Assembly (NCBI GenBank): GCA_030612025.1
Contig: JAUWOR010000008.1
Coordinates: 29,849 to 93,848 of the forward strand
Direction: 5' to 3'
Length of the DNA stretch: 64,000 nt
Origin: Dehalococcoidia bacterium
GTDB taxonomy: Bacteria > Chloroflexota > Dehalococcoidia > GIF9 > AB-539-J10
Shown here: positions 1 to 5,118 of the stretch, in pieces
How the letters are laid out: each line of letters begins with the position of its first letter
Numbering within the stretch: the first letter of the stretch is position 1
Program-made: the position numbers and the translations under genes
Notes under the pieces: model-generated
What the model saw: only the letters and a program-made list of their open reading frames with translations
What the model was told of the DNA's origin: nothing
The model's database searches: none

Positions 1-58
1 GCCTTAGCAAATTTGGGCGAGAGTACATAGCACCGTAGCCTTTTAGCCGCCATTATAC
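1..58 (-). repeat. degenerate/truncated attC-like site (runs off window edge)
   Basis: minus strand GTATAAT (near-complement of the cassette core GTTATAC); shares CTCGCCCAAAT with the attC at 384-460. Confidence 0.45.
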
Positions 59-94
59 GTAGCGAACGAAATAAAATAATCAGCCAGGGAATGC

Positions 95-295
95 CTATTT
101 CCCAAGCACTTTATATACCGGTTTTATTGCTGCTAACACAAAAATTATAGCATACCAATACCAATCTAAACTGAGCAGTGGTCCCCAAAGTTTCGCTATC
201 ATTAAAATACAACCTGCAACACTCAGTTTCATGAACTGGATATCAATCCAATTCAACTTTTTTATTTTTGCATCTGCCAAAGTTCCAAAAGTCAT
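95..295 (-). CDS. small membrane protein, probable integron gene cassette 2
   Basis: 66-aa ORF with two hydrophobic segments and an AGGAGG SD; lies between the attC core GTTATAC (384-390) and a degenerate attC at 1-58. Confidence 0.7.
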   Translation of the reverse strand: MTFGTLADAKIKKLNWIDIQFMKLSVAGCILMIAKLWGPLLSLDWYWYAIIFVLAAIKPVYKVLGK

Positions 296-383
296 ATTTT
301 TATACCTCCTTTCTATTTAAATTCAGCCTCTATTTATACTAAAATTCAGGTGGTTTAAGAATTTGCCTCCCGAAGCCAATTGC

Positions 384-853
<470 letters not shown>

Positions 854-869
854 TCACCTCCAGGATATC

Positions 870-895
870 GTCTAACAGCCATATAAACGAACTCT
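870..895 (-). mobile_element. attI-like recombination core (GTTAGAC)
   Basis: GTTRRRY core 23 bp upstream of the VOC start, near-complement of the cassette's GCCTAAC; no upstream attC palindrome seen. Confidence 0.5.
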
Positions 896-925
896 GGATT
901 CGCCCAGTCCGCTGTGGCTTATCAA

Positions 926-954
926 ATCTTGGCATCTGTCACAGTAGCCGTCAA
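926..954 (-). promoter_or_regulatory. possible Pc-like cassette promoter
   Basis: TTGACG-17 bp-CAAGAT with a TG extension, pointing into the cassettes. Confidence 0.35.
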
Positions 955-1018
955 GCTAATTGCAACCACAATTGCAGGGCCCCTCATTATCTTCCTAACA
1001 GGGCCACTCCCCCCAAAA

Positions 1019-1043
1019 GCTGTAATTGCATTCCAGACGGACA
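1019..1043. repeat. 25-bp direct repeat copy A
   Basis: GCTGTAATTGCATTCCAGACGGACA, 19/25 identical to copy C. Confidence 0.6.
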
Positions 1044-1080
1044 TTTGTGGATAATGTGATTGAAGTGTATTTCCTCATTG

Positions 1081-1518
1081 TCAACTGAACCCTCTTTGTT
1101 TAAATGCTGCAGCATTCTCGGCCATCTTCTTCAGGAGGTCAAGGGCAAGCTGTCTTTCATTCTCTGTAAATCCGGTGGCCAGACCTTCAGTCCAGTGTTC
1201 TAAAGCTCTTTCTATCCTGGGCACGACGTCTTTGCCTTTAGCTGTCAGAGAAAGCCTGTAAAACCGCTTGTCCTGGGAATCACGGTTTTTCGCCACATAT
1301 CCTAGCTCCACCAGCTTCTTAATTGCTCGCGCCGTCGTCGTTTTATCCATGCCGAGTGCTTCACTCAATTCGTCCTGGCTCAATCCATCCTGCTGATAAA
1401 GAACACGGATAAAGGGCAAATGACCTCCCTTGACATCGAGTTCAGCAAACTCTTTGTCTATAAAACTACGGCTGTACCTGTGAATGATAGAGACCCACCT
1501 GCCTAATGACTCGTTCAT
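1081..1518 (-). CDS. MarR family transcriptional regulator
   Basis: GLSQDELSEALGMDKTTTARAIKKLVELGYV...DKR...LTAKG winged HTH. Confidence 0.92.
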   Translation of the reverse strand: MNESLGRWVSIIHRYSRSFIDKEFAELDVKGGHLPFIRVLYQQDGLSQDELSEALGMDKTTTARAIKKLVELGYVAKNRDSQDKRFYRLSLTAKGKDVVPRIERALEHWTEGLATGFTENERQLALDLLKKMAENAAAFKQRGFS

Positions 1519-1524
1519 CGTGTA

Positions 1525-2886
1525 TCACCCCGCTTCCATTAGAATTTGCTGTTTCTTGAACTCACGCATCTGGGGAATAACCATAGCAAGCGTTATGATA
1601 AAGGATAATGTATCGGCGATTGGGAATGATAGCCATACCCCATTAAGTCCGAAGAAACGTGGCAGAATGAATACTAAAGGGATGAGAAAGAGAATCTGCC
1701 TGGATGTAGAGAGAATGAATGTTTGAATTGGTTTTCCAATTGCCTGAAATATGGTTGCGCCAACAATCTGAAATCCGACCAGCCAAAGTGCCATAAAGAT
1801 AAGCCTTATTGCATGGGTGCCTTGGGATATAAGGGCAGCATCCGTGGAAAAAAAACGTATAATCGGCTCAGCGAAAAGGAGGATGATTAAGACAGCACCG
1901 ACGGAAAAGGCCGCCGCAATAATAACGGACCGGCGTATTACTTCTATTCCCCTGTCATAACGCCTCGCACCATAGCTGAAACCAAGGATTGGCTGGAGTC
2001 CCTGAGCAATACCCATATTCGGCATTACGGCAAAGTGCAGCACCCGATGTACCACACCAAAAACTGCTATGGAGACATCCCCACCGTAAAAACCAAGAGT
2101 CCTGTTAATAATGACAGCAATAAAGCTTCCTGCTGCAGTCCTTACAAACACACCGAATCCTATGGCTACAATTTCCTTGACTACAGTCCGCTCAAGAATA
2201 AAGTTTTTCACCCGAATTCGTAGGGAACTCTTTCCAGAGAGAAAATAATGCGCCAGATACAGGGTGGTGACAACATGTGCAATAACCGTTGCAATTGCAG
2301 CCCCCCGGATACCCATGCCAAGGGCAAAGATGAAAACTGGGTCAAGCGCAATGTTTAAAAGAGCACCTATAAACATGCTTATCATTGCCACCCGGGCATT
2401 GCCTTCCGCCCTGATAATAGCATTGGCTGCCATAGAGAATCCGTGGAACACCACGCCGAGAAGAATTATATCCATGTATTCTTTTGCGTAGGGTAGAATG
2501 GTGTCCGTAGCTCCAAAAAGACGGAGAAGGAAAGTGCTTCTTGACAATGCCACAACCGCTAACGTTCCCCCAAGAATAAGAATCAAAATTATGGCATTAC
2601 CCAGTGTACGTTCCGCCCTTTTCATATTGTCAGCACCCAGGCTTCTAGAAATAAGGGAAGCTGCCCCTATTCCTACCATCAGCCCTATGCCCATTATTAC
2701 CATCTGGATTGGGAAAACAATGGAAATGCCGGCGATACCCAGAATACCCACTCCTCGACCAACAAAAATCGCATCTACGACGTTGTAGAGAGACATAACG
2801 AACATGCCTGCCATCGCTGGGAGAGAGAGTTTCCACAGCAATGTTTTTATGGGTTCGCTAGCTAGAGCTACACTGTGGTCATGCAT
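1525..2886 (-). CDS. MATE family efflux transporter (MepA-like)
   Basis: LYNVVDAIFVGRG, LNIALDPVFIF, GAAIAT motifs; ~12 TM segments. Confidence 0.93.
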   Translation of the reverse strand: MHDHSVALASEPIKTLLWKLSLPAMAGMFVMSLYNVVDAIFVGRGVGILGIAGISIVFPIQMVIMGIGLMVGIGAASLISRSLGADNMKRAERTLGNAIILILILGGTLAVVALSRSTFLLRLFGATDTILPYAKEYMDIILLGVVFHGFSMAANAIIRAEGNARVAMISMFIGALLNIALDPVFIFALGMGIRGAAIATVIAHVVTTLYLAHYFLSGKSSLRIRVKNFILERTVVKEIVAIGFGVFVRTAAGSFIAVIINRTLGFYGGDVSIAVFGVVHRVLHFAVMPNMGIAQGLQPILGFSYGARRYDRGIEVIRRSVIIAAAFSVGAVLIILLFAEPIIRFFSTDAALISQGTHAIRLIFMALWLVGFQIVGATIFQAIGKPIQTFILSTSRQILFLIPLVFILPRFFGLNGVWLSFPIADTLSFIITLAMVIPQMREFKKQQILMEAG

Positions 2887-2905
2887 AACTTATTCAAATC
2901 CCTTC

Positions 2906-2957
2906 ATCAGTTGTAAATACAACTGATTATATCAAGGCATAGTTGTAAATACAACTA
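2906..2957 (-). promoter_or_regulatory. sigma70 promoter with two MarR-type operators
   Basis: TTGTAT-17 bp-TATAAT overlapped by two copies of palindromic AGTTGTAAATACAACT. Confidence 0.8.
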
Positions 2958-3041
2958 ATCTTTGAAGTAGCCTTCCAGTAGAATTTGAGTGGAAGGCAGA
3001 AGGTTATTTATCTCCCAGCCAGAACCATTTCCCGCTCTAAA

Positions 3042-3066
3042 GTTGTAATTACATTCCGCATGGGCA
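3042..3066. repeat. 25-bp direct repeat copy B
   Basis: GTTGTAATTACATTCCGCATGGGCA, 23/25 identical to copy C. Confidence 0.8.
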
Positions 3067-3071
3067 CGGAT

Positions 3072-3749
3072 TCATGGGTACATGCTCCTTAGTTCCTCTA
3101 CAATTCTCCTCTCTTCCGTAAGTTTCTCTCTTTGCTCCGGGGTTAGGCGAGTTTGGTATTCAGCAAGCTTACGGTGTAACCTTTCCATCTCCTTACCGGG
3201 TTTCGCCCCCTCGAAACCAGACATTGCAGGAGTTTCTTTAACTCCTTCGGCTAGGCCGATTTTAGCAGCAATCCTCGGATACCATGATGGTCTAAAAAAC
3301 CCGGCAGTTAACCAGTCTCCAAACCGCACTATCAGAATGTCAATATACCGCATAGGTGGAAAGAACCACCGCACAACCCCGCCTTCCTGACCTGTCACAG
3401 CACGCAATAGGGTGCCTCCTCCAGCATACAAGAAACATAGCGTGAGAAGAAAACAGGGCAGGCAGAGGATGACGAGGATCAGACTCCAAAAACCACCAGT
3501 GCCAACCGCACCAAAGATAAAGCTGAAGATAAGGCCAAACATAGACCAGACAAAGGCCAATACCAGGTAACCAGTGCCCCTGTACTCAGGTGGCTCTAGT
3601 TCGCTTAGTTTGGCGCCTCTTACTTCTGGATTAACGGCACTATGTTTGCCGGCAACAAATAATAGAGCAGCAGCCGTCAATGAGAGGCCAGCAAGAATAG
3701 CAAAGAAAGAGGGAGAAAGTAATCTACCCAGTCTTACTAAGATTTCCAT
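3072..3749 (-). CDS. hypothetical membrane protein
   Basis: ORF with ~3 TM segments and a charged C-terminal helix; GGAGG SD before ATG 3749. Confidence 0.7.
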   Translation of the reverse strand: MEILVRLGRLLSPSFFAILAGLSLTAAALLFVAGKHSAVNPEVRGAKLSELEPPEYRGTGYLVLAFVWSMFGLIFSFIFGAVGTGGFWSLILVILCLPCFLLTLCFLYAGGGTLLRAVTGQEGGVVRWFFPPMRYIDILIVRFGDWLTAGFFRPSWYPRIAAKIGLAEGVKETPAMSGFEGAKPGKEMERLHRKLAEYQTRLTPEQREKLTEERRIVEELRSMYP

Positions 3750-3910
3750 GGCCACCTCCCTTCAAACTAGCTCCGACAAATATTTAAGGATAGCATAACA
3801 AATTTGAATGTGATGGAGCTAGTTGCAATCTCTATCGCTGAGCGATTTGACAGAATTTTGCGGATGAAATGATTACCCTAGTCCCTTCTCAAACAACTTT
3901 CCACCCCAAC

Positions 3911-3935
3911 GTTGTAACTACATTCCGCACGGGCA
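3911..3935. repeat. 25-bp direct repeat copy C
   Basis: GTTGTAACTACATTCCGCACGGGCA. Confidence 0.8.
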
Positions 3936-4065: not shown

Positions 4066-5118
4066 ATGAAGATTATTGACCTGCGAAGTGATACGATAAC
4101 CCTCCCCACAGAGGATATGCGCCGAGCCATGTATGAGGCTGAAGTAGGAGATGACGTTTATAAAGAGGACCCCACCGTTAATCTCTTAGAGGAACTAGCT
4201 GCCCGCATGTTGGAGAAAGAGGCTGCTCTCTTTACAGCCAGCGGAACTATGAGCAACCTTATTGCTATCCTGACATATACCCGCCACGGCAATGAAATCA
4301 TCATGGGCAGTGAAGCTCATATGTTATGGGCCGAGGTTGGCTCTGCATCTGCCTTAGGTGGAGTCGTGATGAGGACTGTTCCCAACGAGCAAGACGGCCG
4401 GCTGGACCTTGGTATGGTGGAGCAAGCTATTCGACCAGAAAATATCCACTTCCCTCAGACTACGCTCCTCTGTCTAGAGAATACCCACAATCGCTGTGGT
4501 GGCACTGTTCTGACTCCTGAATACACATCTACTATCGCCGAACTCGCTCACCAACATGGACTTCGGGTTCACCTGGACGGAGCACGCATTTTCAACGCCG
4601 CCGTTGCCCTTGATGTGCCTGTAAGTGAACTGGTTGCACCCGCGGATTCTGTCTGCTTCTGCCTCTCCAAGGGCCTCAGCGCTCCCGTGGGCTCTCTCCT
4701 GTGTGGGACTCAGGAGTTTGTAGCGAAGGCCCGCAAGTGGCGTAAGATGCTGGGAGGAGGAATGCGCCAGGTGGGAATCATCGCTGCCGCTGGCATCATT
4801 GCTCTTCAGAAAATGGTTGCGCGTCTGGCTGAAGATCACGCTACTGCCCGGCACTTAGCGTATGGGCTAGCCAACATCCCCGGCATCACCGTTCACCCTG
4901 ACAGGGTTCAAACCAACATCGTGATGTTTGAGCCTCCGATTACCATCCCCGCTCCCGAGTTCATCCAACGGAGCAGTGCCCGGGGTGTTAGGTTCGGCTC
5001 TCTGGGTGGGCGAAGAGTGCGGGCCGTCACGCACCGCATGGTCACAAAGGCAGATATAGATGAAGCCCTGAACCGTATTGAGTTTCTTGTCAGAGAAACA
5101 GAGTCAGAAGCCCATTAG
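4066..5118 (+). CDS. ltaE: low-specificity L-threonine aldolase
   Basis: IDLRSDT, VGDDVY.EDPTV, CLENTHN, HLDGARIFNA, CLSKGL.APVG. Confidence 0.95.
   Translation: MKIIDLRSDTITLPTEDMRRAMYEAEVGDDVYKEDPTVNLLEELAARMLEKEAALFTASGTMSNLIAILTYTRHGNEIIMGSEAHMLWAEVGSASALGGVVMRTVPNEQDGRLDLGMVEQAIRPENIHFPQTTLLCLENTHNRCGGTVLTPEYTSTIAELAHQHGLRVHLDGARIFNAAVALDVPVSELVAPADSVCFCLSKGLSAPVGSLLCGTQEFVAKARKWRKMLGGGMRQVGIIAAAGIIALQKMVARLAEDHATARHLAYGLANIPGITVHPDRVQTNIVMFEPPITIPAPEFIQRSSARGVRFGSLGGRRVRAVTHRMVTKADIDEALNRIEFLVRETESEAH

Follow-up and report, generated by a model that had tools for sequence, protein, structure and literature searches.

A comM-derived 25-bp site that probably marks junctions of integrative elements and accreted gene modules in Dehalococcoidia

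Introduction

In a 64,000-nucleotide stretch of the genome of a Dehalococcoidia bacterium (contig JAUWOR010000008.1 of assembly GCA_030612025.1, positions 29,849 to 93,848; the whole stretch is called the window here), a 25-bp sequence is repeated three times in one orientation and separates small gene modules. The question raised by this locus is what kind of site the repeat is, from which sequence it originated, and how it came to stand between these genes. A preliminary description, made from the letters alone, took the copies for recombination sites or element ends forming a possibly new cassette system. The comparisons presented here point to a probable answer: the 25-mer would be the core of an attL-type junction of integrative elements that target the gene comM, and the array a series of accreted modules without integrases.

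Genomes and searches

The source genome (G000) has 1,400,681 bp in 19 contigs and is 95.6% complete; the window corresponds to G000:C15:29849-93848. The 25-mer was searched in 61 genomes of the same order, allowing up to 3 mismatches and using the reversed pattern as control, in a class-wide sample of 401 genomes, allowing up to 2 mismatches, and as an exact pattern in one genome per species for 185,579 species. A metagenome scan for the motif gave at least 123 loci. The pooled instances number 159; the orientation test was performed on 156 and the alignment on 127 non-redundant ones. Genomes G001 and G002 belong to the same genus as the source genome and are about 89–96% identical to it at the array locus. 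From public metagenome runs, X5 and X8 among them, only assembled contigs were compared with the window. L-numbers (L061, L069, L102, L114 and others) designate motif or comM loci on genome or metagenome contigs.

The repeated site and its distribution

The degenerate 25-mer presents exactly three matches in the window, and none in 100 dinucleotide shuffles of it:

1019..1043, plus strand: copy A, the most diverged, 19/25 identical to B, C and D
3042..3066, plus strand: copy B, 5 bp from the stop codon of a membrane-protein gene
3911..3935, plus strand: copy C, intergenic, between the divergently oriented ltaE and membrane-protein genes

Copies B and C are identical at 23/25 positions, and A/C and A/B at 19/25, which reproduces the positions and identities first reported. 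Outside the window, 132 bp from its left end, there is a fourth copy in the same orientation, D (G000:C15:29717-29741). Beyond these four, the search of the 1,400,681-bp genome, relaxed sub-patterns included, gave no other copy.

Other details of the preliminary description were also recovered. A C-rich tract is located ahead of every window copy; copy B ends at 3066, 5 bp past the stop codon of the preceding minus-strand open reading frame (ORF), at 3072-3074; and the spacing to the next minus-strand start codon, previously given as about 155–170 bp, measures 156 bp from C (to 3755), 156 bp from B (to 2886) and 172 bp from A (to 847). The palindromic core held in part: TGTAATTACA is a perfect palindrome in copy B, and A and C differ from it by one change each. 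The semi-conserved site around copy A spans about 980 to 1052.

The alignment revealed a whole unit of about 60 bp, composed of a C-rich arm, the 25-mer and a weaker right part. The C-rich arm starts at about -28 (about -40 in sub-families), and the weaker right-hand nGGGTTCAT reaches +34. The site is 88–100% conserved across families, and its flanks are unrelated. One sub-family (L037:7167-7251, L038:4858-4942, L061, L102 and L217) presents an extra conserved stretch of about 85 bp at the right of the 25-mer, and the same stretch adjoins a decayed motif in G027:C9.

Within the order, the motif was found in 20 of the 61 genomes, with 1 to 8 copies each and a single copy in 13 of them, against one match of the reversed control. 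At the class level it was present in 11 of the 401 genomes, from at least four families, with no control match. The exact pattern matched 15 loci, all of them in metagenome-assembled genomes (MAGs) titled Dehalococcoidia, Dehalococcoidales, Chloroflexota or Chloroflexia, and viral contigs gave no match. These sites occupy many unrelated intergenic places, so the hotspot beside ltaE that was initially proposed is not a general feature.

A core of about 25 bp, asymmetric, in a single copy in most motif genomes and direct in arrays would also recall dif, with Xer-exploiting elements stacked at the site. This explanation is close to negligible, because the motif is absent from 41 of the 61 genomes, including the one-contig G053, because the copies of G009 are at 5 loci on 3 contigs, and because the GC skew of contig C15 keeps its sign at 30-34 kb and changes near 9 kb. 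A general dif consensus gave just four 5-mismatch matches of no note.

Origin of the site in comM

Variation in the motif recurs with a spacing of three positions, and the minus strand reads ...NPCPCGM followed by a stop codon. In copy B this reading is ATG AAT CCG TGC CCA TGC GGA ATG TAA (MNPCPCGM-stop). The minus-strand anatomy is (ATGAAYCCN)TGYCCNTGCGG, then a junction point, then AATGTAATTACAAC and a purine-rich arm. The part before the junction point corresponds to comM codons 352-358 (MNPCPCG), and comprises about 12 nt of the 25-mer plus about 9 nt that flank it to its right. The other 13 nt of the 25-mer and the C-rich arm are, to judge from the sequence, the end of an inserted element.

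The transition can be followed in individual loci. In L069, the ORF ending in the motif corresponds to ComM residues 4-358 (...VGAMNPCPCGM-stop); L114 presents the same run from comM into the motif, with two frameshifts; and in both the comM homology stops at motif position 14. The intact comM of the source genome (C15:16133-17665) reads ...TGC CCC TGC GG/C TAT TAT, and the motif ...TGC CCG TGC GG/A ATG TAA TTA CAA C, where the slash marks the junction point. Sequences of comM occur within 2 kb of the motif at 7 independent loci among the 159 instances, which by our rough estimate is far above chance for one gene in about 1,500. In more than 100 non-redundant copies the comM-derived arm is sharply about 20 nt long. 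Since half of the site copies comM codons 352-358, we interpret it as the junction of comM-targeting integrative elements, and the same origin explains the coding-like pattern of the motif.

The search for ComM in the 61 genomes revealed several split or duplicated copies. In relatives of the source genome, elements carrying a large serine recombinase (LSR) split comM within 0-18 nt of the point at which the motif leaves it. In G052, a 13.9-kb element parts comM residues 4-348 from 348-509 and encodes a 541-aa LSR overlapping the junction convergently, as well as Prim-Pol, DUF669, HTH_17, an AAA ATPase and a methylase. In G058, a 532-aa LSR adjoins a comM truncated after ...NPCPC. The junction is 6 codons upstream of the CPC codons in G052 and at these codons in G058. 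The element-side sequence at these two junctions has no match to the motif within 6 mismatches, and, as they are without the motif's element side, we attribute these and other split-comM junctions to other element lineages on the same target. Additional comM-motif junctions were sought on long contigs, where the G553 candidate proved to be without comM, and the 1.5 kb around each of the further class-level copies of the motif was free of comM, of LSRs and of tyrosine recombinases.

Orphan comM 5′ pieces were found in G027, G015 and G000. A second comM hotspot appears near codon 39, where orphan comM starts are cut after ...GLPSF (L192, G060:C2:23267-23374; G041:C6:75308-75430; L195, G027:C8:85221-85331), and an LSR gene adjoins the codon-39 pieces in G060 and G041. 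In G023 (L224, G023:C99), a 2.5-kb module (XRE regulator, HicA and unknown genes, no recombinase) stands between an intact comM end and a displaced comM 3′ part whose first codons are the CPCG codons, the arrangement that an insert bringing a replacement comM end would give. At locus L194 (G026:C4:7300-16000), a motif 65 bp upstream of an intact comM marks the start of an island that encodes DarT-DarG, a PIN/Phd pair and a Xer-like recombinase.

The comM origin bears on whether the repeat could be a DNA or RNA motif unrelated to recombination, such as a transcription factor site, a terminator, a leader peptide or a small mobile repeat. The copies are intergenic, the three of the window are 156-172 bp upstream of a start codon, and the mini-ORF MNPCPCGM-stop varies at third positions, all of which would suit such a motif. 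We consider this very improbable. The orientations of neighbouring genes are random (++ 23, +- 21, -- 18, -+ 15; 156 instances) and the distances are spread, and the fixed distance from promoters expected of a regulatory site does not appear. Moreover, the ATG of the mini-ORF is not conserved, no stable fold was found on either strand of A, B or C (z from -0.26 to +1.13 against shuffles), the source genome has four copies within 4 kb and none elsewhere, and the coding-like pattern is accounted for by comM. More specific identities were also discarded: a leader peptide, because the ORFs upstream of the motif are not conserved; the 3′ end of a conserved gene, because the other strand has no long ORF that terminates in the motif; and a miniature inverted-repeat transposable element or other small mobile repeat, because the only copies in the source genome are four in 4 kb, with no fold, and module breakpoints are inside the unit instead of at its ends.

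Module boundaries and proposed mechanism

Copies situated within 10 kb of each other on one contig are always direct. This was observed in 7 non-homologous clusters with 9 adjacent pairs (the source genome; G009 C16, C23 and C17; G044 C3 and C30; and L102), and the modules between clustered copies, of 0.9-7.6 kb, are without recombinase genes. In the all-against-all comparison of flanks, homology stops at motif position 25 in 8 pairs and starts at positions 1-2 in 8 pairs, and other classes are found too. The presence and absence of a module could be followed cleanly in one case, in which L102 equals L061 plus 942 bp. Left flank and motif match at 96% up to position 25 of the first copy in L102, and motif and right flank match at 94% from position 2 of the second copy. 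Two proteins are encoded in the 942-bp insert, a membrane protein of 173 aa and an XRE regulator of 70 aa, and the empty form of the site is also present in G009, L146 and L157. L100 was examined as a third allele at the L061 site, with different DNA after the site, and was rejected because it is a single join that may be chimeric. In the comparison of the congeners G009 and G027, the left and right neighbours of the sites map to different contigs.

Direct clusters and breakpoints at the motif edges agree with the earlier claim that the repeats act as copies of a recombination site delimiting modules; a second coincidence of breakpoint and motif, between G002 and G000 at copy A, is described below. 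For the modules of the window itself, the support from presence and absence is one weak contig joint. One short contig of run X8 joins 982 to 3008, skipping copy A and the MarR-MATE module, and it was treated as a hint only, because its shorter side has just 43 nt. Short joints from 514 to 3045 and from 514 to 3048 (sides of 30-41 nt, at a likeness floor of 88%) probably come from other organisms and were discarded, as were the window parts without cover by metagenome contigs, for the same probable reason.

From these boundaries we infer the following mechanism. A circular gene module with one site would recombine with a resident copy, each insertion would leave direct repeats, and repetition would build arrays of modules without integrases, a process of accretion. 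The array would have been assembled in this way into the order D, cassette segment, A, MarR-MATE, B, membrane protein and C, with a recombinase supplied in trans and not encoded in the source genome.

A more far-reaching version is possible, although we hold it only tentatively. In it, the unit of about 60 bp would be a portable docking site that mimics 20 nt of comM and serves as a landing pad throughout the class, at which recombinase-free modules are inserted, excised and swapped in trans. If true, it would be a second integron-like system of gene shuffling, escaped from its original target gene.

The cassette idea of the preliminary description was right in outline, insofar as the modules are bounded by recombination sites; the system is not categorically new, half of the site being comM. 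The proposal of a layer stacked on an integron is not supported, as the genome has no integron integrase and the 25-mer does not fold like attC.

Search for the recombinase

The source genome has no LSR domain and only two full tyrosine recombinases, both Xer-like. The domains PF00589 and PF07508 map nowhere on contig C15, which agrees with the earlier remark that no recombinase is visible in the window (DDE transposases were not scanned there). Seed searches over the loci recovered two LSRs and two to three tyrosine recombinases near sites. Leaving aside three representatives whose identity was known (comM, an LSR and a tyrosine recombinase), a Pfam scan assigned one of the 126 remaining neighbour clusters of at least 230 aa to the rve transposases and one to the tyrosine recombinases; none of the others is a recombinase. 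Recombinases beside other copies, which the preliminary description had suggested to look for, are then rare nearby and absent from the motif junctions.

Three of these neighbours deserve comment. The LSR near L133, 625 bp from the motif, was discarded as the cognate enzyme: homology with G044 breaks 670 bp from the motif, and on this ground the LSR has its own junction. A tRNA guessed by eye at that junction was not confirmed by ARAGORN. In L043, an LSR is located 2.1 kb from the motif. The tyrosine recombinase beside the motif in G026 was also rejected, because it is a Xer-like paralogue conserved in many genomes whether or not they contain the motif; close orthologues (at least 58% identity) are present in 8 of the 20 motif genomes and in about 24 of the 41 others.

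Xer-like recombinases occur in 61/61 genomes, and this could favour an active platform similar to an integron, in which identical sites of about 60 bp are recombined by a Xer-like or undiscovered enzyme and the likeness to comM reflects only the place of origin. All copies being of one type, as for recombination between identical sites, would fit this platform, and so would the many loci away from comM, the scrambled gene order around sites in G009 and G027, and the clean insertion of a module bounded by 24-bp identity. We judge it quite unlikely. The core has no inverted arms around a spacer, its sole symmetry being a 10-bp palindrome without spacer, the G026 paralogue is distributed independently of the motif as given above, the sites drift neutrally in the genus of the source genome, and most genomes have 0 or 1 copy. 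As to an integron site proper, the two full tyrosine recombinases of the source genome are below the integron-integrase cut-offs and match Xer models best, and there is no attC hairpin.

The leading candidate for the enzyme is an LSR acting in trans. This choice is based on the LSRs located at comM junctions in the order and on the preferences of LSRs in general. In a survey of LSR targets, the gene most often hit is presumably comM, to judge from an annotation typical of ComM/YifB. In the preprint (10.1101/2021.11.05.467528), 12.4% of site-specific LSRs have this one gene as target.

Inheritance of the array within the genus

The succession of A, MarR/MATE, B, membrane protein, C and ltaE is common to G000, G001 and G002. 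Compared with the other two, G000 has three extra segments: the cassette at window 367-959, a 1,032-bp segment and a 4.86-kb block. The 1,032-bp segment is missing in G002, with its right breakpoint exactly at the first bases of A (homology between G002 and G000 starts at 1019). The 4.86-kb block (C15:24902-29762), absent from G001 and G002, contains GT4 and GH15 genes, a comM 5′ remnant and, at its right end, copy D. The comM remnant (residues 5-66, frameshifted) is on the minus strand at G000:C15:29339-29545, 170 bp from D. The right end of the block is 21 bp past D, and its left end matches 24/26 nt of the element-side arm at the comM 3′ junction of G023; with this match at the left and D at the right, the block has both ends of an element of this general family.

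The copies themselves have been changing. Copy B is 25/25 identical in G001 and degraded in G002, with 4-5 changes and an insertion within a stretch otherwise about 96% identical, and the orthologues of copy C in G001, G002 and G003 are 23-24/25 identical. In general, orthologous copies differ at 0-3 of 25 positions (141/150 identical overall), and flanks are 83-95% identical where alignable. Because the copies evolve like their flanks and B is degraded, there is no sign of present function or selection at the array. An array common to three congeneric genomes whose copies are decaying looks inherited and not currently active; from these sequence comparisons, it looks older than the genus and now in decay. 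A degenerate motif copy with 4 mismatches (L041:6935-6959, in G001:C39) is located between ltaE and a DegV gene, with no counterpart in G000.

Such decay could mean that the sites are nothing but scars, that is, old comM insertions later rearranged, with the differences among genomes produced by homologous recombination, deletion or assembly chimeras. The retention of the array in three congeneric genomes with decaying sites is expected from scars, as is the absence of an encoded recombinase. Other indels do end off the motif (the glyoxalase cassette at -58, the 4.86-kb block 21 bp past D), and assembly with short k can join contigs at 25-bp repeats. Nevertheless, scars alone are an unlikely explanation, because the comM arm shows no ragged decay, remaining sharply about 20 nt in over 100 copies; two exact joins are required for the L102 module, whose empty form is found in four other assemblies; breakpoints pile up at positions 1-2 and 25; and the site keeps its conservation of 88-100% across families amid unrelated flanks.

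Returning to the junction of comM-targeting elements, several results weigh against it. Of the 159 instances, 151 are nowhere near comM. Three loci (G026, G011 and L087) have the motif upstream of an intact comM, at 65-107 bp and oppositely oriented, an arrangement for which the model gives no explanation. The search for an LSR domain was negative in G000 (95.6% complete) as well as in G009 and G044 (both 98% complete, with 8 and 6 copies of the motif), and LSR presence does not track the motif (6/20 genomes with it, 14/41 without it); no recombinase gene is at the junction of any copy. All copies represent one junction type, and serine integrases normally do not recombine identical sites, so this feature fits a simple recombinase acting on identical sites better than an LSR. 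In addition, the orthologous copies change at a flank-like rate, B being degraded in G002, and chimeric assembly could account for some of the breakpoints located exactly at the 25-bp repeat, L100 and the X8 joint among them.

Other features of the locus

The modules and the right flank of the window array are:

1..1018, minus strand: window part of segment D-A, with a 66-aa ORF (95-295), an attC-like imperfect inverted repeat (about 385-465) and a glyoxalase gene (455-847)
1044..3041, minus strand: module A-B, with a MATE efflux gene (1525-2886) and a MarR gene (1081-1518)
3067..3910, minus strand: module B-C, with the single gene 3072-3755, encoding a 227-aa membrane protein
4066..5118, plus strand: ltaE (threonine aldolase-type lyase), which flanks copy C on its comM-derived side

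The 227-aa membrane protein (3072-3755) has no match in Pfam or NCBIfam. Upstream of the MATE-MarR operon, the 16-bp palindrome AGTTGTAAATACAACT occurs twice (2909-2927 and 2941-2959), 32 bp apart, and this pair is probably the MarR operator. The first bases of the palindrome resemble the start of the 25-mer.

Positions 367-959 of the window constitute a single-gene glyoxalase cassette that ends, on its 3′ side, in an imperfect inverted repeat with stems of 9 bp. G001 is without this cassette, and so are contigs of runs X5 and X8, where 362 is joined to 960; similar sequences are found at G000:C11:19584 and C7:3790. As the genome is without an integron integrase, the cassette looks like an orphan cassette of attC type.

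The search of Rfam on the 30 kb left of the window gave three tRNAs and nothing else. A word search indicated about 25 copies of a longer repeat across the source genome, for example at C4:92857 and C8:94773. The GC skew on C15 goes from positive to negative near 9 kb, which may be a replication landmark.

Relation to known systems and significance

The system belongs to a known kind, that of integrative islands with accreted modules lacking integrases. The nearest example is in the same class: the ssrA islands of Dehalococcoides, for which McMurdie et al. (2011, PMC3146451) describe direct repeats of 20 bp next to which stands a conserved motif foreign to the target. In the same account, autonomous members have DsiB, a serine recombinase of about 540 aa, next to attL, and 15 islands without integration modules are proposed to be cis-mobilisable by accretion (PMC3146451). 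As described there, those islands resemble the present array in being tandem and bounded by a short direct repeat of target-gene sequence plus an adjacent non-target motif. Their target is the 3′ end of ssrA, with all repeats reported at no more than 100 kb downstream of it, whereas here the target is the middle of comM. Unlike in ssrA islands, the junction leaves comM truncated and not restored; the copies are for the most part scattered over unrelated intergenic loci, and none has been found with a cognate recombinase beside it. A link with tmRNA in the source genome was rejected, ssrA being on contig C1 and unrelated. The LSR elements inserted in comM target the same codons or a point 6 codons before, while the motif family is without an LSR at its junctions.

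The composite islands of the staphylococcal cassette chromosome (SCC) are likewise formed by accreted, att-flanked modules. Accretion at the att sites of integrative and conjugative elements, with its cis-mobilisable elements, a concept cited in PMC3146451, is similar in its integrase-free modules, direct att copies, serial insertion and service in trans. Both kinds of array stay at one chromosomal target gene, whereas the sites described here are portable and scattered. Integron cassettes are comparable as small, mostly recombinase-free modules in one orientation between repeated sites, and true attC-like cassettes are present in the same locus (window about 367-959). On the other hand, the genome has no IntI and the 25-mer no attC hairpin, and the modules are multi-gene, in both orientations and with their own promoters. 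The AbaR islands of Acinetobacter, Tn7-like transposons reported to interrupt and inactivate comM (PMC11472951), have in common the recurrent target, and differ from the site-specific recombination at a shared 24-25-bp site to which the evidence points here. Our literature searches gave no description of this motif, nor of islands of comM type in Dehalococcoidia.

The genomes of Dehalococcoidia are small and streamlined, and adaptive genes are known to reach them as ssrA islands; comM would be a second route. The junction turned scattered docking site would mark additions of efflux pumps, peptidases, toxin-antitoxin pairs and catabolic enzymes. In practice, the 25-mer may be used as a marker of island borders in MAGs of the class, and it offers a defined pair of short DNA sites with which to seek the recombinase. 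With this junction, uncultured anaerobes join the lineages whose comM, a gene of natural transformation, is hit by mobile DNA.

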